Source: Lama guanicoe (Eukaryota). From it: DNA of 64,000 nucleotides. The stretch is from the NCBI GenBank assembly GCA_013239625.1, contig MU053881.1, forward strand, positions 15,306,373-15,370,372, read 5' to 3'. Shown piece after piece: positions 40,498-61,439 of the stretch (the first letter of the stretch is position 1; each line of letters opens with the position of its first letter). The notes under the pieces were generated by a model. The model had not been told where the DNA came from. It made no database searches and worked only from the letters and a program-made list of their open reading frames with translations. Both the position numbers and the translations under genes were made by a program.

Positions 40498-42261
<1,764 letters not shown>

Positions 42262-48369: not shown

Positions 48370-48499
48370 GTATGAAGTCTAGTTGGTCCAGCAGGAAGGG
48401 GGAAAACTTCTGCAAAATAAATGTGTTATGCTCTAGATTATATATCAGGGCTGCTTGACAATGTCTGAACTTTCTCTGCACCAAGGTCCTTCTGAAAGC

Positions 48500-49120
48500 C
48501 AGTCATCCCCTCATCCATCTTTCTACCCATCCTTCCATCTGCCATTGATCTATCCATCATCTATCAGTTATCCACTATCCATTCACTGATTCACCCAGCT
48601 GTTCATCAATCCACCTCCTATTCATTGATCTCTTTACCAATTCCTTCATCTTTCTTCATTCACACAGTCATTTATCTACTCAGATTTCATCCACCTGTCC
48701 ACCCACTCACCTATCCTCCCTCCATCTATCCATTTATGCCTCCACGCACCCATCCATCCATTTATCTATCTACTCATCTATCCATCCATCCATTCCTCCA
48801 TCCATCTATCCATTTATTCATCCATGCACCCAACTACACATCCATCCCATTTATCTGTTTACCCACTCATCCATCCATTTATCCATCCATCTATGGGTCC
48901 ATTTCCTTATTTACGGATCTGTTCATCAATTCAGCCATCAACTTCCTTTACTCATCCGTTTTCGATCCAATCCTTCATCCATCCTTCCAATGCATCCAAC
49001 ATTCATTCATCCACTGATTTATCCACTCAGTATCTAGTCCTGCCCATCTATCCATCCAACTTTCACTCTCTCACCCACTCATATATTAGTCAAGGTAGCC
49101 ACCCAGCCACTATCCACCTG
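48500..49120. repeat. Degenerate (TCCA)n low-complexity tract in the IQCN intron
   Basis: Many catccatcca/tatccatc units. Confidence 0.85.
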
Positions 49121-49634
49121 TTCACAGCCTGGAGCCAAGTCTTGTGACCGAGATGGGGACAGAGAAATGACTCAGATTTGGTTCCTACCTTCTAGGAATT
49201 CACAGTCAATGGGAAAAGGCAAATAATAACACCATGCACACACACACACAATGTGCACATATACACACAAACAAGATATTTCCAAAACAGTGTGATCAGT
49301 GCTGTACTCACAGTATGCTCCAGATACAGAGGAAGATTGAAAAGCTAGTAGGTGGTTGGCCATTCAGGTGAGAATGTGCACTGCATGCTAGTGTCAAAGT
49401 AGCTACAGGATGATGGGGAGACATAGGGACCAAAGGCCACCTGGGCATGTGGCCAGGAGAGAGAGGGCCTGCAAAAGAGAGGAGGAAGACTGCAAGGTGC
49501 CAGGAACAAGAAGATATAGGTCCAAGAGTGAGCACATACCCCAGCCAGGAGACCTCGTGTCTGCTGGCCCTACTCCCTGACTGCCTCCCTGCCACCTTCC
49601 ACAGGCAGAGCTGACCCGCCTAGGAACCAAGACA

Positions 49635-52600
49635 ATGCAGCAAGCAACACAGCTACAGGTGCCACCCAGTGGGCAGAGCTCCCACCAGCCCATCCCTAAT
49701 CTTCAGGACAAAGCGGGGATGCTGTGTCCACAGCTACAGATGTCACCCAGTGGGCAGAGCTCCTACCAGCCCATCCCCAAACTCCAAGACAAAGTGGGGA
49801 CACCACGTCCACAGCCCCAGCACCAGCCACCTGCATCCAAGGAGACCCTCCTGCAACAGCCTGACAAAGACAAGACGGTGGCTCGCCATATCCCACGCCT
49901 CCGGGCTGTGGTCGAGAGCCAGGCCTTCAAGAATGTCCTGGTGGACGAGATGGACATGATGCTTTCCCGCGCAGCCACCCTCATCCAGGCCAACTGGAGG
50001 GGCTACCGGCTCCGACAGAAGCTGATCTCTCAGATGATGGCGGCCAAGGCCATCCAGGAGGCCTGGCGACGCTTCAACACCAGGCGCCTCCTCCGGTCTG
50101 GCAAGACGGTGGAGAAAAGAGTGAAAATGGAGGAGAGGGACATTCCGTACCACCCACCCCAGCAGGTGCGGTTCCAGCATCCGGAAGAGGGCAAATCCCT
50201 TCTGGCCCCGCCCATCATGCTGAGCAAGGAGACTCAGTTCCCATCCTCTGACAGCTTGGCCACTTACAGCGAACAGCTGGCCCTGCTACAGTCCCAGGGC
50301 ATGTCACAGCCTGGCGTGCAGGCTACATGTGCTGTTGGAGGCCCCAGTGTCACCTTCCTGCCTCACCAAGCTGTCGCCATCAAACTTCCATGTCCAGTGA
50401 GTCTAGAGGCAAAGTGCCACCCATGCCTGCTGACAGGAACTGTCAGAAGTTCCTGCGTTGTCCGTGTAGAAGGTGACACAACGAAGACCAAGCCAGTAAC
50501 TTCCAGAGCCAACAAGGCAGAAGCCACAGGGCCACCACCGTCCGGAAGATATGCCCAGGCAGTACATGGACAGCTCAAGACCCAGACTCAGGCCCACATG
50601 GAAGCAGAGGTCTTCAAAGCCCCACCCCAGACAGGCCCAACATCTGTGATAACCAAGACCCCACCCCAGCCAGTGCCCACCATGACAGTCACCAAGACCC
50701 CGCTTCAGATGTACCCAGCAGCCAGGATAACCAAGACCCCACTCCAGCCTTGCCCAGTGCCCATGGTAACAATAACCAAGACCCCACTCCAGGTACACCT
50801 GGCAGCTCCAGTGACCAAGACCCCAGCCCAGACATACCCGGCAGCCACAGTGACCAAGACCCCACTCCAGTCGTGCCTGGCGGCCATGATGAACAAGATC
50901 CCACCCCAGCCATGCCCGGCACCAATGGTAACAATAACCAAGACCCCACCCCAAGTGTACCCGGCAGCCCCAGTGGCCAAGACGCCACCCCAGACGTACC
51001 CACCAGCCATGATGACCAAGACCCCACTCCAGTCGTGCCTGGCGGCCATGATGAACAAGATCCAGTCCCAGCCGTGCCCAGCACCTGCAATAACAATAAC
51101 CAAGACCCCACCCCAGCCGTGCCCAGTAACCCCAATGACCAAGACCCCAGTCCAGATGCGGCCAACAGCCTCAGTGACTAACACTTCACCTCAGACACGC
51201 CCGGCAGCCGTGATGACCAAGATCCCACCCCAGTTATGCCTGTTGGCCTCAATGATCAAGTCCCCACCCCAGACACGCCCCACAGCCACCATGACCAAGA
51301 CCCCGCCCCAGACATGCACGGTGCCGATGATGGCCAAGACCCCACCCCAGATGCGCCCGGCAGCTACGATGACCAAGACCCCATTGCAGACATGTCAGGC
51401 AGCCACGATGGCCAAGACCCCATCTCATCAGATGCTCCAAGGAGGCTCGGTGACCAAGGCTCCTCCCCAGACACGCCTGGCAGCCATGATAACTAAGACC
51501 CCGGCACAGTTACGCTCAGTAGCCACCATCCTCAGGACCCTGTGCCTGCCCCCTCCAGCAGCAGCTGAAAATCCGAAACCTTCACTTTCAGCAGCGGCAG
51601 CAGCCGGAATTCCTGACACCTCATCCCACACCTGTCTAAGTGGGCCAAAGACCAAGGCTGTGGGGAACACCAGGCAGGCAGCAGGGGTGGTCAAAGTCTC
51701 GTCCCGCTCATATTTGACTGAGGGAAAGGTGAAATATTTCTCCCCGTCACATCTGGGGGCTGGGGCTCCCAAGGTTCCAGCCAAGCCTCCTTTGGAAGGT
51801 GAGAAAATCAAGGCCTTCTCCCAGAAACAAGTGAAAATGGAAACCGTGTCTGATACCAGCGTCGCCATGGAAATACCTGGGGCTTTGTCCTGGGCAAAAG
51901 TGGCTGAGGACAGGAACAAGCAGGCCCACCTGAGGGCAGATATCATGAAGATTCAATCCCGGGTGTATGCGCCTGTAGAAACAGCTGTGGTGCCCCAGGC
52001 ACAGCTGGACACATGTCCCGCCAGAGTTTCGCCTCCGGCACAGCCAGGCCCATGTTCAACCACCATCTCATCCCAGAGACATCTGCTCGCTGAGCTGACC
52101 AGGGCTCTGCCCCAGGCCCACTTGGGCACGTGTCTGTCCAAGCCCCTGTCCCAGGCATATCTGTCTACCAAGCTGACCAAAGCCCCGTCCCAGGGGTATC
52201 CACCATCACCTGCTGAGCTGACTGCAGCCCCAGCCCAGCCACATCTAGTCACGTGTCTGTCCAAGGTGCAGTCCGAGGCCCATCTGCCCGCCAAGCTGAC
52301 CAAAGCTCAGTCCCAGGCACATCTGGTCACAGGAGCGATAAAGATCCAGTCCCAAGCCCATCTGCCCGCAGGGCTGACTAAGGCGCAGTCCCAGGCCCAG
52401 CTGGTCACAGAAACAGCCAAGTGCCTCCATGCAGCCCACCAGGCTGCCGAGCTCAGCAGCAAGACCCAGTCCCAGCCACTCCTGATTGGGTTCAAAGCTT
52501 CCACCCAGCCCTGCCAGCACATCAGTGCCCTGGGCACTCTGCCCCGAGCCAAGCCAGAGGACAGACTGACCCAGCTCCCGTCCCATAGCCATGTGCAGGC

Positions 52601-55600
52601 CAAGGCCACCCAGGGCCCATGCCAGGGGGTCTCTGAGACCCAGAACGTGCTGGTGCCTCTGCTGGCATCTGCTGGGCACACCACGTGCAATGTCGAATCC
52701 TGGGGGGACAGCGGAGCCACCCGGGCCCAGCCGTCAATGACCAGCTCGGCCCCGCCCTGCCAGGAGGAGCTGGCAGCCTCCCAGCTGGCCTCCCTATGTG
52801 CTGAGCTAGCCGCCGTGCTGGGCTCCCAGGAGGACCTCCGTGCCCTGCTGGCAAAAGCCCTCTCCCAAGGGGAAGTGAGGGCGGCCCTGAACCAGGCCCT
52901 GTCCAAAGAAGTCTTGGGAGCCACAATGGCCAAGGCCCTGCCCCAGGGCATCCTGGGCACGGCACTGGTGAAGGCGCTGTCCTGGGGCGAGCTGGGCACC
53001 ACCCTGTCCCGCGCCTTGTCCCAGGGTGAGCTGCGGGCGGAACTCACTAAGGCCATTCAGGGCCGACTGGCGGATGTGCTCAGCAAGGCCCTGACGGAGG
53101 AGGAGAGGGCCACCTTCAACCAGGCCCTGTGTCAGGGGGAGCTGGGCGCCGTTCTGAGCCAGTCTTTGTCTCAGGCGGCCTTGAGGTCTGGGGTTGTCCT
53201 TCCCAAGGCTTCCTCGAAAACAGCGGGAAGCAGGATGACGGTGATGCCAACCCCAGTGGAGGTGGACTACAGGGGGAGCCCATCGGCCGCATGGGGGCCC
53301 ACCCTGGGCTCCATGAGACTACAGCCTGGCAAGGTCAGGGTTCCTTGGGGTGGGGTGTGGGAGGGCTTTGTCACCAACTGGCCCTCTGGGCTCTTGGGAG
53401 AGATGGGGGATGGGGCCATGCTCTTGGGGTCACCCTGCTCATCAGTGGTCTCTGTGGGAGCCTTATTGACTGGTAAGGTGGTCACCACCATTCATCAGTA
53501 TTCCCTACTTGCTGCCCTGGACCCCACTCTGTCATGGGAGATGGGGCCCAGCAGCGACTCCTTAAACCTAAGCTCTGGGGTCAACGAGGAGAATGTGTGC
53601 CTGCACCCAGGGGCCAGTAAATTGGCATCAGATCTTAACCCGGTGTTGAGTGACATGGACCCCAATTTGCCCAAGTCACCCCACCAGCATCCTCCCTGCA
53701 GTCTCTGGCAGCCACTCACTGCCAATGGTGTGGGCCCTAGCACCAGCCGGCCATCATTGGCTGGTGGTGGCATGACTCCGAGTTCCCACAATCCACCTGA
53801 GGTCAGCACGGTGGCCCCACGTCCATGGGTGTCGTCGAGGGAGGGCAGGGTGGCACCAGCCAAGCTTCCCAGAACTACAGGTGGTAGGAGGGCCACCCAC
53901 TCCCACCAGTGTGCCGCCGCTTCTGGGGGGTCTGCTTGCTGGTGTCAGCCCTCAGGGGTTGGCAGGGTGCCCCCTGGTATGTGTCAACCTTTAGTGGCCA
54001 AAGGTCCCCAGCAGCCATCCATGGTCCCCAAGGAGATCCTGCAGAGGACTCAGTCCCCCAGTCATAGACGGGCCTCCATGGGCACTAGGGAGATGACCAA
54101 CAAGGTAACCCCAAGTCCACCGCGTGCCACCACGGTGACCAAGGTGCCCCTAATCCAACCACAGGCGCCCAAGGCCTGTGTCATAACCCCAGGTCTTCGG
54201 CCTGATTCCATGGCCCCTGGTCATCACTGGGCACTCAAGACTCAGGTTGACCCCTGTGTGTTCCAAGCCTCCCCAGGCAAGAGGTTGGCACTGACCCTTC
54301 CCTGTGTAGCCATCTCCAGGCAAGAGAAGAATCAAACACGGGGGACCATTTCCAGTGGGCGCTGCCCACCGGAGCTGGTGACTAACCATATACTCAAGGA
54401 ACTGGTGGCCAGTTTACCACAGGGTTCAGACAGTGACCTGGCCAGGAGCTTCTCCCAGGGCTCCACAGGCTACGGCCCCAATGTGAGCAATTCCCAGAGC
54501 TCACTGCGTAGTTGCAGTTCACTCAGCCTTTCCACCATGTCTGTGGCCAGCTTGACCACTGTTAACCTGGTGGAAGGGGAGTCCTGGGAAGCCAGTTTGG
54601 ACAAGGATTTTCATCAAGATGCTGGCCTCTCTGGAGAGGCCGGGGAGAAATCCCAGGTACCCGGGAATATGGAAGAGATTGAGAGAGCAGGTGTTGGGCA
54701 TGTGACCCTAAACCTCCACGACCAGTCCTCTGGAGCCTCAGAGCTGATCCCCATTCTGCATCACAGCTCAGTGTCCAGTCGCATGACCTTGAGTGTCCAC
54801 TGGGGCTCAGATGACTGGGATGAGGGAAATATGTCCTCAGGCCAAAGCTCCATGGATCTGAGGGAGAGCTTGTCCCAGAAATCCTATAGGGCTGGGTTGA
54901 CAAGAAGTCTGTCTTTGAATAATGTAGTCCCGACTGCATATCAGTGGTCATCTGTGGCCAGTAGGTTAACACCATGCCTATCACAACCCACAATAGCCAG
55001 TAAGGTGGCCCCAAACCCAAGCCAGCCTTCTATGGCCAGTAGGGTCATCCCCAGCCTATCTGAGCTCTCTATGGCCAGTAAGATGACTCCCAGCCTAGGT
55101 GTGCCATCTAAGACCAATAGGGTGGACCTCTGCCTAGCCCAGCCATGTAGGGTCAGTGGGGTGGCCATCAGCCTAGGCCAGCCACCTGTTATCTGTGAGG
55201 TAGCCCCCAGCCTAGCCCAGTCATTGATGACTTGTGAGGTGGCCCCCAGCTTTGCCCAGCCATTGATGGCTGGTGGGGTGGCCCTCAGCCTAGGCCAGCC
55301 ACCTGTGATATGTGAAGTGGCCCCCAGCCTACCTCAGTTATCAATGACTGATGAGGTGGCACCCAGCTTTGCCCAGCCATTGATGGCTGGTGGGGTCGCC
55401 CCCAGCCTAGCCCAGCCATCTATGACTGGTGGGGTCACTCCCAGCCTAGCCCAGACATCTGTGACCAGTGGGGTGACCCCCAGCCTAGCCCAGCCACCTG
55501 CGACTGGTGGGGTGACCCCCAGCCTAGCCCAGACATCTATGACCGGTGGGGTCACTCCCAGCCAAGCCCAGCCATCTGCGACCAGTGGGGTGACCCCCAG

Positions 55601-58600
55601 CCTACCCCAGCTATCTGCGACCAGTGGGGTGACCCCTAGCCTACCCCAGCTATCTGTGACCGGTGGGGTGACCCCCAGCCTAGCCCAGCCATCTACGACC
55701 AGTGGGGTCACTCCCAGCCTAGCCCAGCCACCTGTGACCGGTGGGGTGACCCCCAGCCTAGCCCAGCCATCTATGACCGGTGGAGTGACTCCCAGCCAAG
55801 CTCAGCCACCTGCGACCAGTGGGGTGACCCCTAGCCTAACCCAGCTATCTGTGACCAATGGGGTGACCCCCAGCCTAGTCCAGCCATCTATGACCGGTGG
55901 AGTGACTCCCAGCCAAGCTCAGCCACCTGCGACCAGTGGGGTGACCCCTAGCCTAACCCAGCTATCTGTGACCAATGGGGTGACCCCCAGCCTAGTCCAG
56001 CCATCTATGACCGGTGGAGTCACTCCCAGCCTAGCCCAGCCACCTGTGACCGGTGGGGTGACCCCCAGCCTAGACCAGCCATCTATGACCAGTGGGGTGA
56101 CCCCCAGCCTAGCCCAGCCACCTGTAACTGGTGGGATTGCCTCCAGCCTAGGCCAGACATCTATGATCAGTAGAGTGGCCCCCAGCCTTGCCCACCCAGC
56201 TATGACCAGCGAGATAACTCCCAGCCTAGCCCAGCCACATAAGACCAGTAGAGTGGACCTTAGCCTAGGTCAACCATCAATGGCTGCTGGTGTAACTCCA
56301 AGCACATTCCAGCCATCCATGAGAGATGGGATGACCCCAAGCCTAGCCCAGCCATCTGTGCCTGGTGGGGTGGCCCCCAGCTTAGCACAGACATTTATGA
56401 CTGGGGGGGTTGTCCCCAACCTAGGCCAGACATCTAGGGTTGGTGGGGTGGCCCCCACTCTGGCCCAGTCATCTATGACCATTGGGGTCACCCCTAGCCT
56501 AGGCCAGCCATCTTTGACCATTGGGATGACCCCCTGCCTAGCCCAGCCATCCTTTGCTGGTGGGGTGGCTCCTAGCTTAGGCCAGCCTTCTATGGCTTGT
56601 GTGGTGGTCCCCAGCCTAAGCCAGCCATCTTTGACCAGCGGTGCGGGTTGTGCACTCAGTCAGCCAAGTTGGGCCCCTAGGGTGGGTTCAAATCTACCAT
56701 CATCAAGGGTGAACGCAGTGGCTCCCACTCTGCGTCATTCATCATTTGCCATTGAAGTCACCTCATGTACACCGTATCCATCACTGACTAATGGCTTGGG
56801 CCAGGGTCTGAGCCAGCCAACCATGTCTACTAGGGTGGACCCACGTCAAGATCCTCTGATGGTTAGTGGGGTAGCCTCAAATCCCCAGGCCCCTGAGTTC
56901 AGCGAGATATCCCTTGGGTTTTATCAGCCACACAGTATTGGTGGAAGGCGCCCAAGCATAACTGAACAGTCTGCTGTCACAGTTTCAGCTCCAAATCTCT
57001 ACCAGGCATCTATTGCCAGTGGAGGGGACTCTTGTCTGGGCCAGGGAACCAGCATATCTCAGGGGATTCTGTTCCAGGGTATGGCTACAAGCATGTCCCA
57101 GGGCACCATGGCTGCTGGCACGCTCCCGGGTGTGTCTCAGGGGACTCTGGCGGCTGGCATGTTTCTTAGTATGTCTCGAGTACCTATGTCTCCTGGCATG
57201 AGCAGGAGTATGTGCCGGAGAAGCGTGGCAACTGGTAATGGCCCAAGACAATCTCAAGGGGCCAGGGGCATGGCTCCCCTCACATCCCGGGCCTCACTGG
57301 CTAGTGCCCCTTTGATTCATCAACCAGTCTCAGGGGTGTGCCCTGGCTTTTCTCAGGCTTCAGTGCCCAGTGGACTGGATATGAGTTTGTCCAAGTTTTC
57401 CCTGAGTAGTGTGAGTCCCAGTATGTCTCAGGTCAATGTTAGTCTCCCAATACCTTTGGACCACCAGTGTACTTCTGTGTCCACAATCTCCACATCCAGT
57501 TATCAACAAGCACACGCTGGCAGTCAGCAGCCTGGGATGGGCATAGCCAGAGGTTTGGTGCCAGGTTCTGTAGCTGGTAGGATTTCCACGGCTGTGGCCC
57601 CAGGTTCTATGGCTAAGGGCGTGGCCCCCAGCCTTCCACCAGGTTATATGATCAATGGTGTGGTTCAGACCCTCCTTCCAGGGTCTGTGATCTGTGGCAT
57701 AGGCCAGGGCCCCCCTCCAGGGTCTGTGATCAGTGGCATGGGCCAGGGCCCCCCTCCAGGGCCTGTGATCAGTGGCATAGGCCAGGGCCCCCCTCCAGGG
57801 CCTGTGGTCAGTGGCATAGGCCAGGGCCTCCCTCCAGGGTCTGTGATCAGTGGCATAGGCCAGGGCCCCCCTCCAGGGTCTGTGATCTGTGGCATGGGCC
57901 AGGGCCTCCCTCCAGGGCCTGTGATCAATGGCATGGGCCAGGGCCCCCCTCCACGGCCTGTGATCGGTGGCATGGGCCAGGGCTTCCCTCCAGGGTCTGT
58001 GGCCAATGGCATGGCCAGAACGCTGTCTCCAAGTTCCGTGGTGACTGGGGTGTCCCCTAGTCCGATTGCAGCCTCTGGTGCTGGTGGGAAGAGGCAAGGT
58101 CTCTCTGTAAGACCCTCAGCCAGTCTAACTGCTCCAAACCTGCTCCTAGGTTCAGCAGCAAGTGGGGTGGGCCCAGGTAGCCCACCTGGTCTTGTGGCCT
58201 CTAGTGTGGCCCCATCATCTATGAATCAGAGCCTGGTTCTGGGGCCCATGGCTAGTGCAGCTGGTCCACCCTCCACAGCCGGAAGCATGGCCCAGGGCCT
58301 TCCCCACGGGTCCCTGCTGATTGGGATCACCCCCCGTCCATATCATGGGATCCTGTCAGGGGAAGGTTCTACAGCCTCCTTCCAAGCATCCCATGCCACT
58401 GGCCTGGCTCAAGTTCATCCCCAGACCTTGGAAGCTAATGGCACAGCCAAGGGAGTGCACCAAGTGCCCACGGTTCTGCAAAAAGCCTCAGAGTTGAGCC
58501 AGGCTCTTGGGATGATGCCATTTGAGACCATAGGCAGACAGACAGTGATGAAGCCAGAGGACCTGGACAAGGTTCCGCCCCAGGAGTCAATATCCAGGAG

Positions 58601-60614
58601 GGGGTCTGAGGTACTTGAGGCAACCCCGTGGATATACCATAGTCCCCTGGCAACTGACATTGACTATGGCCATGACTTCCCTCCAGAGGACGAGACTCTT
58701 CCCAAAGGCCAGAGGCCGCTGTTGAAGGAGGTGGCTCCAAGCCAAGCTAAGTCTATGACCAGTGGCATGGCCTCTGTCCCTCCCCAGTCTCTGAGTTTTG
58801 CCAAGAACTCCATCGCCAGTGGTGGCACCCCAACCCTGCAGCAGAAGTCAGCAACCAGTTGGAGGGCCCCCAGTTCTCACTCTGTGGCTGCCAGCAGGGT
58901 CCCTGGTGTTCATCAGCAGGCATCGGTGCCTCACGTTGTGCCCCGGAGCCCCTCAGTGGCTCGTGTGGTGCCCCGGAGTCCCTCGGCTTATCAAAAGGCT
59001 TTGGTGGCTCACATTGTGCCCCGGAGCCCCTCAGTGGCTCACGTGCCCCAGAGCCACTCCCGTGGGATGATGGCTTCTGCTGTAGTCTCAAGGTCACCCA
59101 GGCTGGCCAGTTTGCACCCAGGGTCTGTGGCTGGGATGGGGACCCCAAGCACTTCTTGGAGGTCAGGGGCCACCAGTGTGGCCTCACATGTGCCACTTCA
59201 TCCACCCCTGGCTAGAAAGGTAGCGCCCCGTGGGTTCCAGAAGGAAGCCATCCCCAGCGCACTCCGGAAGCCAGTGTCTGGGGACCTGATTCAGAATGGC
59301 CACAGGTATCTTAGCCCTAGAAAATCCTACAGGTCCATGCATGGTATCCCTGTCCCACAGAGGCCAGAAAATTCTGTGGCAAGGATTGTGCCCTCCAATC
59401 AGGTGCAGGAGGATGCCTCCAAGTCCTCACAGGAAGTTCTTAAAAATTCCATAGGCGCACCAGTGGCCATAATGCCAATCATCCGCACCGGTGAGGTGTC
59501 ACACCGCACAGCCATCCCTAGGCTGAACCTGGGGGCTCGGAGGGTGTCTCTGGGCTATGAGTCTTCACCGAGTGGTTCTCTGCGACCCCTTTTTAACCAG
59601 AAGTTGCTGCTGGGATCTCAGGACTCCCATAGCTCTGTGGCTCCTGTAGACAGTCACAGGGCCTCCCTGACTCCCACTGTACTCCAGGGCCCTAAGGACG
59701 CTGGCGTATCTGGTGGCCAAGCGTGGAACTCCGTCGTCCCCAGTGTAGCGGTTGGGCGCAGGAACAGCACCGTGGCCCCTTGTGGTGTGTGGGAGCCACC
59801 CAGGGACGCTGTGCCATGGGATGCCATGGGCAGCAAAGTGGCAGTGGATCCCAGACAGCCAGGGGAGCTGGTGGCGTCAGTGCAGGCTGTGGAGAAGATA
59901 ATCATCAATGCCGTGGTCATCATCCAGGCATGTACACGAGGCTACCTGGTGCGCCGTACCATCAAGATTTGGCACCAGTGGGCCATCATCATCCAGGCTG
60001 CCTGGCGTGGCTACTGTGTGCGGCGGGACCTGGCCCGGCTCTGCAGGGCTGTCACAATAATCCAGGCTGCATGGCGAGGCTTCTGTACCCGCCGGAGTCA
60101 TGCTCAGCAAATGCTGCTCCCAAGCGTGTGGGCAGAGGTGGGCGCCAGGGCCAGGTCTACATCTGACCACCGCTGCTTCCAGTCCTGCCAGCCACATGAC
60201 TGTACCCTCTGCCGGTCACTGAGCTCCGGGCTGGGGAGCCCACCCAGTGTGGTGATGCTTGTGGGATCCAGCCCCCGCACGTGCCACATGTGTGGCCATA
60301 CTCTGCCCACGAGAGTGGTGCACGGCGTGGGCCGGGGTGCTGCGGTCCAGGCTGTCATGCCTCGGAGCTGCATTACCCAGTCAACACCTCGGAGTCCCCG
60401 CCAACCCCATCCCCCGAACAAGGCAGCCACGGCCATCCAGTCTGCCTGGAGGGGCTTCACTGTACGCCGCCGGCTGAAGCAGCAGCAGCTAGCAGCCAAG
60501 ACCCTTCAAGCCACCTGGCGCGGCCACTCCACCCGGGCCTCCCTCACCACGGATGCGCTTTTGGGATCGGCGATGTGGGACAACTCGCGGCACACGCAGT
60601 GGCCTGGCGTCTAG
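49635..60614 (+). CDS. IQCN: IQ motif-containing protein N (KIAA1683): continuous 3659-aa ORF, or 1541 aa if 53334-59687 is spliced out
   Basis: N-terminal RLRAVVESQAFKNVLVDEMDMM...AATLIQANWRGY and C-terminal IQ motifs (IQACTRGY, IQAAWRGY, IQAAWRGF, IQSAWRGF, LQATWRGH), ending SRHTQWPGV*. ATG has A at -3. Lies downstream of JUND as in human. Confidence 0.9.
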   Translation: MQQATQLQVPPSGQSSHQPIPNLQDKAGMLCPQLQMSPSGQSSYQPIPKLQDKVGTPRPQPQHQPPASKETLLQQPDKDKTVARHIPRLRAVVESQAFKNVLVDEMDMMLSRAATLIQANWRGYRLRQKLISQMMAAKAIQEAWRRFNTRRLLRSGKTVEKRVKMEERDIPYHPPQQVRFQHPEEGKSLLAPPIMLSKETQFPSSDSLATYSEQLALLQSQGMSQPGVQATCAVGGPSVTFLPHQAVAIKLPCPVSLEAKCHPCLLTGTVRSSCVVRVEGDTTKTKPVTSRANKAEATGPPPSGRYAQAVHGQLKTQTQAHMEAEVFKAPPQTGPTSVITKTPPQPVPTMTVTKTPLQMYPAARITKTPLQPCPVPMVTITKTPLQVHLAAPVTKTPAQTYPAATVTKTPLQSCLAAMMNKIPPQPCPAPMVTITKTPPQVYPAAPVAKTPPQTYPPAMMTKTPLQSCLAAMMNKIQSQPCPAPAITITKTPPQPCPVTPMTKTPVQMRPTASVTNTSPQTRPAAVMTKIPPQLCLLASMIKSPPQTRPTATMTKTPPQTCTVPMMAKTPPQMRPAATMTKTPLQTCQAATMAKTPSHQMLQGGSVTKAPPQTRLAAMITKTPAQLRSVATILRTLCLPPPAAAENPKPSLSAAAAAGIPDTSSHTCLSGPKTKAVGNTRQAAGVVKVSSRSYLTEGKVKYFSPSHLGAGAPKVPAKPPLEGEKIKAFSQKQVKMETVSDTSVAMEIPGALSWAKVAEDRNKQAHLRADIMKIQSRVYAPVETAVVPQAQLDTCPARVSPPAQPGPCSTTISSQRHLLAELTRALPQAHLGTCLSKPLSQAYLSTKLTKAPSQGYPPSPAELTAAPAQPHLVTCLSKVQSEAHLPAKLTKAQSQAHLVTGAIKIQSQAHLPAGLTKAQSQAQLVTETAKCLHAAHQAAELSSKTQSQPLLIGFKASTQPCQHISALGTLPRAKPEDRLTQLPSHSHVQAKATQGPCQGVSETQNVLVPLLASAGHTTCNVESWGDSGATRAQPSMTSSAPPCQEELAASQLASLCAELAAVLGSQEDLRALLAKALSQGEVRAALNQALSKEVLGATMAKALPQGILGTALVKALSWGELGTTLSRALSQGELRAELTKAIQGRLADVLSKALTEEERATFNQALCQGELGAVLSQSLSQAALRSGVVLPKASSKTAGSRMTVMPTPVEVDYRGSPSAAWGPTLGSMRLQPGKVRVPWGGVWEGFVTNWPSGLLGEMGDGAMLLGSPCSSVVSVGALLTGKVVTTIHQYSLLAALDPTLSWEMGPSSDSLNLSSGVNEENVCLHPGASKLASDLNPVLSDMDPNLPKSPHQHPPCSLWQPLTANGVGPSTSRPSLAGGGMTPSSHNPPEVSTVAPRPWVSSREGRVAPAKLPRTTGGRRATHSHQCAAASGGSACWCQPSGVGRVPPGMCQPLVAKGPQQPSMVPKEILQRTQSPSHRRASMGTREMTNKVTPSPPRATTVTKVPLIQPQAPKACVITPGLRPDSMAPGHHWALKTQVDPCVFQASPGKRLALTLPCVAISRQEKNQTRGTISSGRCPPELVTNHILKELVASLPQGSDSDLARSFSQGSTGYGPNVSNSQSSLRSCSSLSLSTMSVASLTTVNLVEGESWEASLDKDFHQDAGLSGEAGEKSQVPGNMEEIERAGVGHVTLNLHDQSSGASELIPILHHSSVSSRMTLSVHWGSDDWDEGNMSSGQSSMDLRESLSQKSYRAGLTRSLSLNNVVPTAYQWSSVASRLTPCLSQPTIASKVAPNPSQPSMASRVIPSLSELSMASKMTPSLGVPSKTNRVDLCLAQPCRVSGVAISLGQPPVICEVAPSLAQSLMTCEVAPSFAQPLMAGGVALSLGQPPVICEVAPSLPQLSMTDEVAPSFAQPLMAGGVAPSLAQPSMTGGVTPSLAQTSVTSGVTPSLAQPPATGGVTPSLAQTSMTGGVTPSQAQPSATSGVTPSLPQLSATSGVTPSLPQLSVTGGVTPSLAQPSTTSGVTPSLAQPPVTGGVTPSLAQPSMTGGVTPSQAQPPATSGVTPSLTQLSVTNGVTPSLVQPSMTGGVTPSQAQPPATSGVTPSLTQLSVTNGVTPSLVQPSMTGGVTPSLAQPPVTGGVTPSLDQPSMTSGVTPSLAQPPVTGGIASSLGQTSMISRVAPSLAHPAMTSEITPSLAQPHKTSRVDLSLGQPSMAAGVTPSTFQPSMRDGMTPSLAQPSVPGGVAPSLAQTFMTGGVVPNLGQTSRVGGVAPTLAQSSMTIGVTPSLGQPSLTIGMTPCLAQPSFAGGVAPSLGQPSMACVVVPSLSQPSLTSGAGCALSQPSWAPRVGSNLPSSRVNAVAPTLRHSSFAIEVTSCTPYPSLTNGLGQGLSQPTMSTRVDPRQDPLMVSGVASNPQAPEFSEISLGFYQPHSIGGRRPSITEQSAVTVSAPNLYQASIASGGDSCLGQGTSISQGILFQGMATSMSQGTMAAGTLPGVSQGTLAAGMFLSMSRVPMSPGMSRSMCRRSVATGNGPRQSQGARGMAPLTSRASLASAPLIHQPVSGVCPGFSQASVPSGLDMSLSKFSLSSVSPSMSQVNVSLPIPLDHQCTSVSTISTSSYQQAHAGSQQPGMGIARGLVPGSVAGRISTAVAPGSMAKGVAPSLPPGYMINGVVQTLLPGSVICGIGQGPPPGSVISGMGQGPPPGPVISGIGQGPPPGPVVSGIGQGLPPGSVISGIGQGPPPGSVICGMGQGLPPGPVINGMGQGPPPRPVIGGMGQGFPPGSVANGMARTLSPSSVVTGVSPSPIAASGAGGKRQGLSVRPSASLTAPNLLLGSAASGVGPGSPPGLVASSVAPSSMNQSLVLGPMASAAGPPSTAGSMAQGLPHGSLLIGITPRPYHGILSGEGSTASFQASHATGLAQVHPQTLEANGTAKGVHQVPTVLQKASELSQALGMMPFETIGRQTVMKPEDLDKVPPQESISRRGSEVLEATPWIYHSPLATDIDYGHDFPPEDETLPKGQRPLLKEVAPSQAKSMTSGMASVPPQSLSFAKNSIASGGTPTLQQKSATSWRAPSSHSVAASRVPGVHQQASVPHVVPRSPSVARVVPRSPSAYQKALVAHIVPRSPSVAHVPQSHSRGMMASAVVSRSPRLASLHPGSVAGMGTPSTSWRSGATSVASHVPLHPPLARKVAPRGFQKEAIPSALRKPVSGDLIQNGHRYLSPRKSYRSMHGIPVPQRPENSVARIVPSNQVQEDASKSSQEVLKNSIGAPVAIMPIIRTGEVSHRTAIPRLNLGARRVSLGYESSPSGSLRPLFNQKLLLGSQDSHSSVAPVDSHRASLTPTVLQGPKDAGVSGGQAWNSVVPSVAVGRRNSTVAPCGVWEPPRDAVPWDAMGSKVAVDPRQPGELVASVQAVEKIIINAVVIIQACTRGYLVRRTIKIWHQWAIIIQAAWRGYCVRRDLARLCRAVTIIQAAWRGFCTRRSHAQQMLLPSVWAEVGARARSTSDHRCFQSCQPHDCTLCRSLSSGLGSPPSVVMLVGSSPRTCHMCGHTLPTRVVHGVGRGAAVQAVMPRSCITQSTPRSPRQPHPPNKAATAIQSAWRGFTVRRRLKQQQLAAKTLQATWRGHSTRASLTTDALLGSAMWDNSRHTQWPGV
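50620..51510 (+). repeat. Coding tandem array of TKTPPQ repeats, ~39-bp (13-aa) period
   Basis: Recurrent accaagaccccaccccag; e.g. TKTPPQTCTVPMM/AKTPPQMRPAATM/TKTPLQTCQAATM. Confidence 0.85.
54950..56640 (+). repeat. Coding minisatellite, 39-bp unit (GVTPSLAQPSMTG)
   Basis: About 40 degenerate copies of ggggtgacccccagcctagcccagccatctatgaccggt; homogeneous core ~55390-56140. Confidence 0.92.
57610..58020 (+). repeat. Coding minisatellite, 39-bp unit (GQGPPPGSVISGM)
   Basis: About 8 near-perfect copies of ggccagggcccccctccagggtctgtgatcagtggcatg plus degenerate flanks. Confidence 0.92.
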
Positions 60615-60676
60615 GACCTTGGCTTCCTAGTCGGGGGACACCAGGGGAGGGGCCGTGTGGCTCTCTGTGTCTAATG

Positions 60677-60682
60677 AATAAA
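60677..60682 (+). terminator. IQCN: IQCN polyadenylation signal AATAAA
   Basis: AATAAA ~60 nt after the TAG, with GT-rich sequence downstream. Confidence 0.8.
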
Positions 60683-61439
60683 GCCCTCCACAGCCTGGGT
60701 CTTGGTCCAGTTGTGCTTATGGGGGCATCTTGGGCATGGTGTGGGGGGAAATTAGGGGAATCTGGAACATCCTGTACAGGAGGGGCCTCCCAACTTCCAA
60801 CCATGCAGTTGGCACCTGGGGTCTATTGCTAGGGTGGGAACCCTAAGCCTTTCCCAGAGGTCATGGCTGCCAGCGTGGCCTCACATGTCCCATCGTGTCC
60901 ATCCATGGCTCATGGGATAGCGTCCAGTCAGTTCCAGATGGAAGCCACCCCCAGGGCACTCCAGAAGCCAGTATCTGGGGACCTGGCCTACAAGGACCAC
61001 CATGAGTCTCTTGGCCATAGAAAACCCAACAGGTGCATGCATGGGTGCCTCATTTGGGAAATGCTAGAGGTCTCCTGACTCGGGATGCTGGGCCCACCCC
61101 CAAGGAGCCGCCGTCTGGGTGAGAGAGACGGACACAGACGTCCCCAGCCGGTGGGGTCAGGGACAGGGCAGAGATGTAAGGAGGAGGTTTGGGGGCACCC
61201 GGAGGGGACAGCCTGGCCAAGAGGAGGAGCAGAGGGGGTGACAGCATGGGTTTGGGGCAGCTATGGAGGAGGCCATGGAGTGGTGGGGGCTCCAGGGGAG
61301 AACGGGAAATAGAAGGGGCAGGGGACAAGCAGAGTGTAAAGCCTCAGGGTCTTAAACCAGACGGGTTTGTTAGAAGTGGGGGGTGGGGTCCAGGTGGAGG
61401 AGGGGGTCAGAAATGTCACCCCTGGTGAACAGTAGCGCT

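Follow-up and report, generated by a model that had tools for sequence, protein, structure and literature searches.

A candidate giant exitron in the terminal coding exon of camelid IQCN

The IQCN locus and its terminal exon

The window analyzed here comprises 64,000 nucleotides of Lama guanicoe DNA (contig MU053881.1, positions 15,306,373 to 15,370,372; all positions given hereafter are those of the window). It carries the gene IQCN on its forward strand and, inside the last exon of this gene, a segment spanning 53334..59687 that could be either read as codons or removed as an intron. A sequence-only reading of the window had proposed that this segment is an exitron, that is, an internal part of a coding exon bearing its own splice signals. 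Positions 49581-60614 (+) form a single stop-to-stop frame of 3677 codons. The only Pfam matches within this giant frame are IQ motifs (E 2e-17), with the best-scoring of three IQ stretches located in its C-terminal part. The best database matches are IQCN proteins: residues 900-1251 are 100% identical to alpaca record P0044 (1462 aa) and 99% identical to the wild camel protein, and two Bactrian camel proteins (3740 and 3646 aa) extend through the whole frame. The C-terminal part is single-copy in the guanaco's own genome. Based on these sequence matches, we identify the gene as IQCN of a lamine camelid (alpaca/llama group).

The giant exon begins at 49605 in phase 0, immediately after an acceptor AG (49603..49604, +) that reads ...CCACCTTCCACAG|GCAGAG, and the alpaca record P0044 spans this border as MTLK|AELTR.... 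An ATG at 49635..49637 (+), which encodes frame residue 19 (MQQATQ...), is the start in most database models; the N-termini of P0002, P0010, P0019, P0021, P0052 and P0086 all lie there. The N-terminal constitutive coding part (49605..53333, +) is 98.2% identical to that of the camel and contains one strict and one loose IQ motif (49983 and 50052, +) as well as 39-bp arrays of the TKTP type (50648-51422 and 52269-52403, +). The C-terminal constitutive coding part (59688..60614, +) contains five strict IQ motifs (59922, 59991, 60060, 60435 and 60504, +) and ends with a TAG stop codon at 60612-60614. A predicted polyadenylation signal, AATAAA, is read from the sequence at 60677..60682 (+), downstream of the TAG, which places the entire coding sequence, segment 53334-59687 included, within the last exon. 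Nearly all of the IQCN coding sequence is contained in this single terminal exon of ~11 kb, from 49605 to ~60700.

The window and alpaca P0044 differ by a few substitutions and by one repeat array that is 93 residues longer in the window. This surplus corresponds to the TKTP-type array at 50648-51422, and could reflect copy-number variation, assembly collapse or a model artefact. Close to the N-terminus, an 81-bp tandem duplication (49648-49800, 1.9 copies) adds 27 residues; it is shared with alpaca P0044 and missing from camel P0002 and P0043. The only full-consensus donor (MAG|GTRAG) within the giant exon is at 51799, in the constitutive N-terminal part. A pattern search for the upstream MTLK exon of P0044, which would supply an ATG exon, returned 0 matches across the window.

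A stop-free segment bounded by splice signals

Segment 53334..59687 (+) is 6354 nt long, that is 3 x 2118 codons, and is in phase 0 with the flanking coding parts. Its reading frame contains 0 stops, while the other two forward frames contain 150 and 79 and the three reverse frames 100, 58 and 90, so that the stop-free frame of 2118 codons announced by the sequence-only reading indeed stands apart from the other five. Base composition alone would predict ~68 stops, and the probability of observing none is ~1e-30.

The candidate donor AAG|GTCAGGGT (53334..53341, +; AAG|GTCAGG) would be translated as Val-Arg (GTC AGG) if retained, and is off consensus with a C at +3 and a G at +6. At the other end, the putative 3' splice region (59648..59687, +) contains a CTGAC located 18 nt upstream of the acceptor (branch A at 59670), a moderate pyrimidine tract and a CAG. 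The acceptor reads ...CCTCCCTGACTCCCACTGTACTCCAG|GGC; if retained, the region is read ...SLTPTVLQ, the last two residues being Leu-Gln (CTC CAG). The pyrimidine fraction is 0.59 at this acceptor versus 0.76 at the acceptor upstream of the giant exon. All four splice signals listed by the sequence-only reading (GT donor, CTGAC, pyrimidine tract and AG acceptor) are thus present in the sequence. Splicing out 53334-59687 keeps the frame, and the joined product reads ...SMRLQPGK|GPKDAGVS.... Counted from the ATG at 49635, the product lengths initially put forward, 3659 aa with the segment retained and 1541 aa with the segment spliced, are arithmetically correct. A retained or detained non-coding intron would be expected to bring in a premature stop or a frameshift; this segment contains no stop and has a length that is a multiple of three.

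The sequence-only reading had also contrasted a segment devoid of dispersed repeats with neighbours "full of them". A self-BLAST of the window, which only detects elements occurring at least twice in 64 kb, found dispersed repeats in 6.1% of the remainder, and in 0% of the segment and of the giant frame. The regions 32-46 kb and 60-64 kb are also almost free of such repeats. The contrast is thus confirmed only in part: the neighbours are not shown to be full of repeats, as the nearest flanks are nearly free of them themselves.

The same junction in database IQCN proteins

We located the 40 residues on each side of the 53333|59688 join in 161 other fetched proteins. The alpaca protein P0044 joins exactly 53333|59688. 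Altogether, 78 of the 161 IQCN proteins have no insert at this point, 75 of them reading K|GP, 2 K|GA and 1 K|VS; these include proteins from bats, primates, rodents, whales, carnivores, artiodactyls, lagomorphs and shrews. The proposed splice sites therefore coincide with the join found in alpaca P0044 and in 77 other mammalian short forms. Another 34 of the 161, spread over seven placental orders, have an insert of 873-2506 aa, which starts with K|VR in 34/34 cases and ends with Q|GP in 34/34 cases. Of the remaining proteins, 48 are without one flank (fragments or too diverged) and one has a 100-residue insert. Long and short models are both named within the same family or genus in the horse, bovids, cats, mustelids, mouse and camelids.

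The first two residues of the insert, V1 and R2, are among only 27 invariant columns out of 570 in an alignment of 18 sequences that includes rodents and Tamandua. Their invariance fits a constraint on the GT and on the AG at donor positions +4/+5. Such conserved Val-Arg and Gln ends are what functioning splice signals in these lineages would lead one to expect.

We also considered whether a processed pseudogene of the short form could provide DNA proof of splicing; this was ruled out, the C-terminal part being single-copy in the genome.

Distribution and evolution of the insert

By record name, the long forms belong to Camelus, Sus, Bubalus, Ovis, Cervus, Bison, Equus, Diceros, Felis, Acinonyx and Panthera, and further to Canis, Mustela, Lontra, seals and sea lions, Talpa, Tamandua, Mus and Mastomys. 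Examples are the models of Sus scrofa (3805 aa), Felis catus (isoform X2, 3815 aa) and Equus asinus (3677 aa), as well as the Mus musculus model mCG1048898 (3135 aa). These counts cover only the lineages in which a pipeline called a long form, and say nothing certain about the DNA of other lineages. No long form of the window's own lineage was found over the full length; the alpaca records found are the 1462-aa short protein and an older, patchy protein of 2396 aa, P0032.

Identity to the window was computed separately for the N-terminal part, the insert and the C-terminal part. The values are 98.2, 92.7 and 98.1% for the camel, 80.7, 65.5 and 82.1% for the pig, 72.1, 62.4 and 72.1% for the ass, 75.4, 61.4 and 69.5% for the cat, 67.7, 53.5 and 72.0% for the mole, and 52.0, 34.8 and 57.9% for the mouse, respectively. 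The insert evolves faster than its flanks while its frame is preserved. Tamandua is collinear with the window over insert residues 1-2114, and the mouse over residues 1-1157 and 1657-1832. The initial claim that the segment is coding gains weight from these homologous inserts, present at the same point in 34 of the 161 proteins and collinear as far as Tamandua and mouse. Along the insert, the conservation profile is flat, between 0.5 and 0.75 among laurasiatherians. A marsupial homolog was considered and set aside: the bilby record matches the repeat arrays alone and in a non-collinear manner, and we do not claim that the insert is older than placentals.

How the insert has changed is also informative. 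By computation, random single-base changes in the insert would be nonsense in 2.6% of cases and missense in 70%. The 154 amino-acid differences from the camel would then be accompanied by ~5.8 nonsense changes under random acceptance, and the at least 699 differences from the pig by at least 26; 0 were seen in either comparison. All nine indels relative to camel P0002 are in frame. The five that fall within the arrays consist of whole 13- or 26-residue units; the same applies to one 26-residue indel just outside the second 39-bp array (array B), and the remaining three are of 1, 1 and 7 residues. Host DNA of relatives was also sought in two metagenome scans, which returned 34 and 232 pattern matches, 0 of which encoded a relative.

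Predicted properties of the encoded insert

The insert is composed of 15.3% Ser, 11.8% Pro and 10.5% Gly; Ser, Pro, Gly and Thr together make up 44% of its residues and charged residues 10%. Tandem Repeats Finder detected a 39-bp minisatellite of 41.5 copies at 55022..56638 (+; array A), encoding 13-residue units of the type GVTPSLAQPSMTG, and a second 39-bp array of 8.8 copies at 57677..58018 (+; array B), with units of the type GQGPPPGSVISGM. These are the 39-bp minisatellites that the sequence-only reading had reported. Repeat copy numbers vary between species, and the window differs from the camel by whole 13/26-aa units. The alpaca protein P0032 (2396 aa, 99% identical in parts) reads part of both arrays in another frame and omits much of the insert, which suggests frame errors in the minisatellites of earlier assemblies.

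The insert matches no Pfam family, and a search of it with the strict IQ pattern was negative. At 59289-59321 (frame residue 3237), it contains a loose IQ-like match, IQNGHRYLSPR. With 18-sequence alignments, AlphaFold2 returned a mean predicted local distance difference test score (pLDDT) of 32.8 for insert residues 1-570 and of 37.9 for residues 1560-2118, and predicted no secondary structure in these two non-repeat thirds. Judging from these models, the insert is probably a long spacer that is disordered and carries two arrays of 13-residue repeats, with the IQ pair on its N-terminal side and the cluster of five IQ motifs on its C-terminal side. The Ser/Thr/Pro/Gly-rich spacer between IQ clusters foreseen by the sequence-only reading agrees with this arrangement, the 44% Ser, Pro, Gly and Thr being flanked by a strict and a loose IQ on the N side and by five strict IQ on the C side.

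Codon usage and RNA word content

When codon tables were compared, each of the three frames of the insert fitted best the same frame of the flanks (3/3).

Nine public runs labelled as RNA, from three studies, contain 0.44-0.46 of 866 words sampled from 52334-60687; they are labelled organism A or "reproductive system metagenome". The flanks account for 2000 of the 8354 bases of this interval (24%), so that a share of 0.44-0.46 would imply that at least one fifth of the words come from inside the segment. This share hardly shifts from 178 to 939 million letters per run. Such steadiness would fit saturated abundant transcripts better than traces of pre-mRNA. The runs of organism B contain 0.92-0.95 of the sampled words.

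Neighbouring features

Upstream of the giant exon, a simple-sequence tract (48496-49147) contains three overlapping open reading frames of 162-173 aa that are rich in I, H, P and S, and the 48-49 kb bin has a GC skew of -0.377. Farther upstream, a long GC-rich open reading frame (40498-42261, +) has a C-terminal half that we recognized by eye as presumably JunD-like, with a basic leucine-zipper end (~41.2-42.3 kb). A Fukomys model named "KIAA1683", P0146, contains basic leucine-zipper (bZIP) and LSM Pfam domains, which fits IQCN adjoining JUND and LSM4.

Discussion

Two proposed in-frame products from one exon

We consider it likely that 53334-59687 is an exitron of the IQCN terminal exon, and that two in-frame products arise by use of the internal GT...AG. 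Retention of the exitron would add 2118 codons and give a protein of ~3659 aa, in which the two IQ motifs of the N-terminal part and the five of the C-terminal part would lie on either side of a probably disordered Ser/Pro/Gly/Thr-rich spacer. Its removal would produce the in-frame K|G join and a form of ~1541 aa, the counterpart of the human and mouse IQCN studied so far. As the exitron is located in the last exon, neither event would place a premature stop upstream of an exon junction, and both mRNAs should be stable. We infer from the sequence that both mRNAs would be made in guanaco testis and that the long one would be translated, selection acting chiefly to maintain an open frame of similar composition and not to preserve exact residues.

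Several observations weigh against this interpretation. The long and short forms compared here are all database gene models, mostly automatic, and a LOW QUALITY flag is attached to four long models. Among the listed records, none of the long forms carries the name of a primate, bat, cetacean, lagomorph or elephant (0/41 and 0/12), and the feature is perhaps not universal. The conservation profile exhibits no sharp conserved islands along the insert. Among 17 long forms, invariant columns amount to 2.5% in the insert versus 13.9% in the N-terminal part and 26% in the C-terminal part, and Trp and Cys show no special conservation in the insert; its exact residues are under weak constraint. A block-wise codon test recovered the right frame in all flank blocks (6 of 6) but in only half of the insert blocks (5 of 10). 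A search for synonymous excess between repeat units was null (array A, 0.34 versus 0.29 expected; array B, 0/76); the constitutive N-terminal array, used as a control, was equally null (0.28 versus 0.27), which makes this test uninformative. Finally, the words present in the RNA runs could come from pre-mRNA, DNA carry-over or the transcripts of a relative.

One alternative is a plain giant exon, always retained in camelids, the short alpaca model being a projection of the human or mouse gene structure. The Bactrian camel records, which are all of the long type, would be explained in this way, as would a donor with C at +3 and G at +6 and an acceptor whose pyrimidine fraction of 0.59 is below the 0.76 of the upstream one. 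Yet the K|G join occurs in 78 of the 161 records, from many orders including primates (no human record was in the junction test), and the human transcript is curated as four exons encoding 1180 aa, according to the available part of PMC9728048. Moreover, Val-Arg and Gln are kept in 34/34 long forms although so few columns of the insert (2.5%) are invariant, a pattern that would be expected solely under use of these splice signals. We therefore regard a constitutive giant exon as unlikely. An ordinary or "detained" intron, retained in germ cells as part of an intron-retention programme and never translated, would in turn account for an amino-acid conservation that is low and near what we would guess for unconstrained sequence, for a codon-usage signal weaker than in the flanks, and for a searched literature that describes only the short protein. 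Untranslated sequence needs no avoidance of stops and frameshifts, yet 6.3 kb remain open here (P ~1e-30), 34 homologous inserts are open across placental orders, and the indels relative to the camel are all in frame; this makes an untranslated intron quite improbable to us. As for an accidental opening or mis-assembled repeats, minisatellites, which are difficult for assemblers, make up about one third of the segment, and P0032 reads the arrays in another frame. To this must be opposed the same probability of ~1e-30, the fact that the non-repeat two-thirds are also open with 50-75% identity to other species, and the 0.92-0.95 of the words present in the organism B runs, and we give chance or artefact almost no credence.

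The exitron interpretation can be extended into a bolder scenario, which we regard as possible but doubtful. The ancestral and main testis product of IQCN in most placental mammals would be a giant of 3-4 thousand residues, with a center of ~2000 residues evolving almost freely. The frame would remain open because the unspliced mRNA is translated through to the C-terminal IQ cluster, the short form would be a spliced minority, and the segment may have decayed to a plain intron where no long form is annotated (primates, bats and whales). If this scenario is true, a 6-kb coding sequence has been caught in the course of turning into an intron.

Significance

The long form is not new at the database level, being annotated in the camel, pig, bovids, horse, cat, seals, mole, tamandua and mouse. 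What appears to be undescribed in the literature searched is that a male-infertility gene has, as its "intron 3", a conserved coding segment of 5-7.5 kb. No discussion of long IQCN forms was found in the IQCN/KIAA1683 literature searched, nor any mention of long-form accessions or names. In that literature, which did not cover the supplementary lists of PMC4484396, the term exitron was not found together with IQCN or KIAA1683.

IQCN is a male-infertility gene, and many mammals may produce a version of its protein that is two to three times longer. In that case, antibodies, the interpretation of "intron" variants, knockouts and models of calmodulin-manchette bridging need a second look. As an exitron, it would also be very large, old and conserved among placental orders, its splicing removing a disordered region of ~2100 residues, and it would offer a clean case of one sequence serving both as codons and as splice signals.

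Comparison with published IQCN, database models and known exitrons

The accessible parts of PMC9728048 and PMC11749140 describe IQCN as a testis-specific protein with six IQ motifs and a role in the manchette or acroplaxome, and in these same parts the word "isoform" occurs 0 times. The short form proposed here matches the published human and mouse protein, for which four exons and 1180 aa are described in human (PMC9728048, available part). In the mouse knockout reported in that part of PMC9728048, exons 3 and 4 were removed by a deletion of 9,832 bp. In the mouse long form P0039, the three parts comprise 1113 + 1701 + 321 residues (3339 + 5103 + 963 nt). Exon 3, insert and exon 4 would then span ~9.4 kb, and the 9,832-bp deletion must also remove the insert. 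Consequently, this knockout cannot tell the short form from the long one. The antibody of PMC9728048, directed at residues 1-200 in the mouse, should recognize both; their masses are estimated at ~370-400 kDa for the long form and ~160 kDa for the short one.

The long IQCN models of other mammals share with the window the gene, the position of the insert, its K|VR start and its Q|GP end. Their inserts are collinear with that of the window, with 92.7% identity in the camel, 60-65% in other laurasiatherians and 35% in the mouse. They differ in their repeat copy numbers and are unpublished automatic predictions.

Compared with exitrons as presented in the available part of PMC4484396, the IQCN segment is likewise an internal part of a coding exon, with a canonical GT...AG, a branch point, no stop and a length that is a multiple of three; an unusually long host exon and a disordered-looking sequence are further points in common. 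The exitrons reported there have sizes close to those of exons, whereas the IQCN segment, at 6354 nt, is far beyond such sizes. In addition, alternative use is deduced here from gene models. The exitron-type splicing of TARDBP (bioRxiv 10.64898/2026.10.06.756961, available part) concerns another gene and another tissue, and the region that would be removed from IQCN measures ~2100 residues. The two cases nevertheless resemble each other in that the donor lies in codons of a disordered region, the event recurs across species despite the divergence of residues, and the protein keeps its structured or functional ends. Within the available part of that report (bioRxiv 10.64898/2026.10.06.756961), such recurrent exitron-type removal of disordered regions is the closest described behaviour to what we propose for IQCN.

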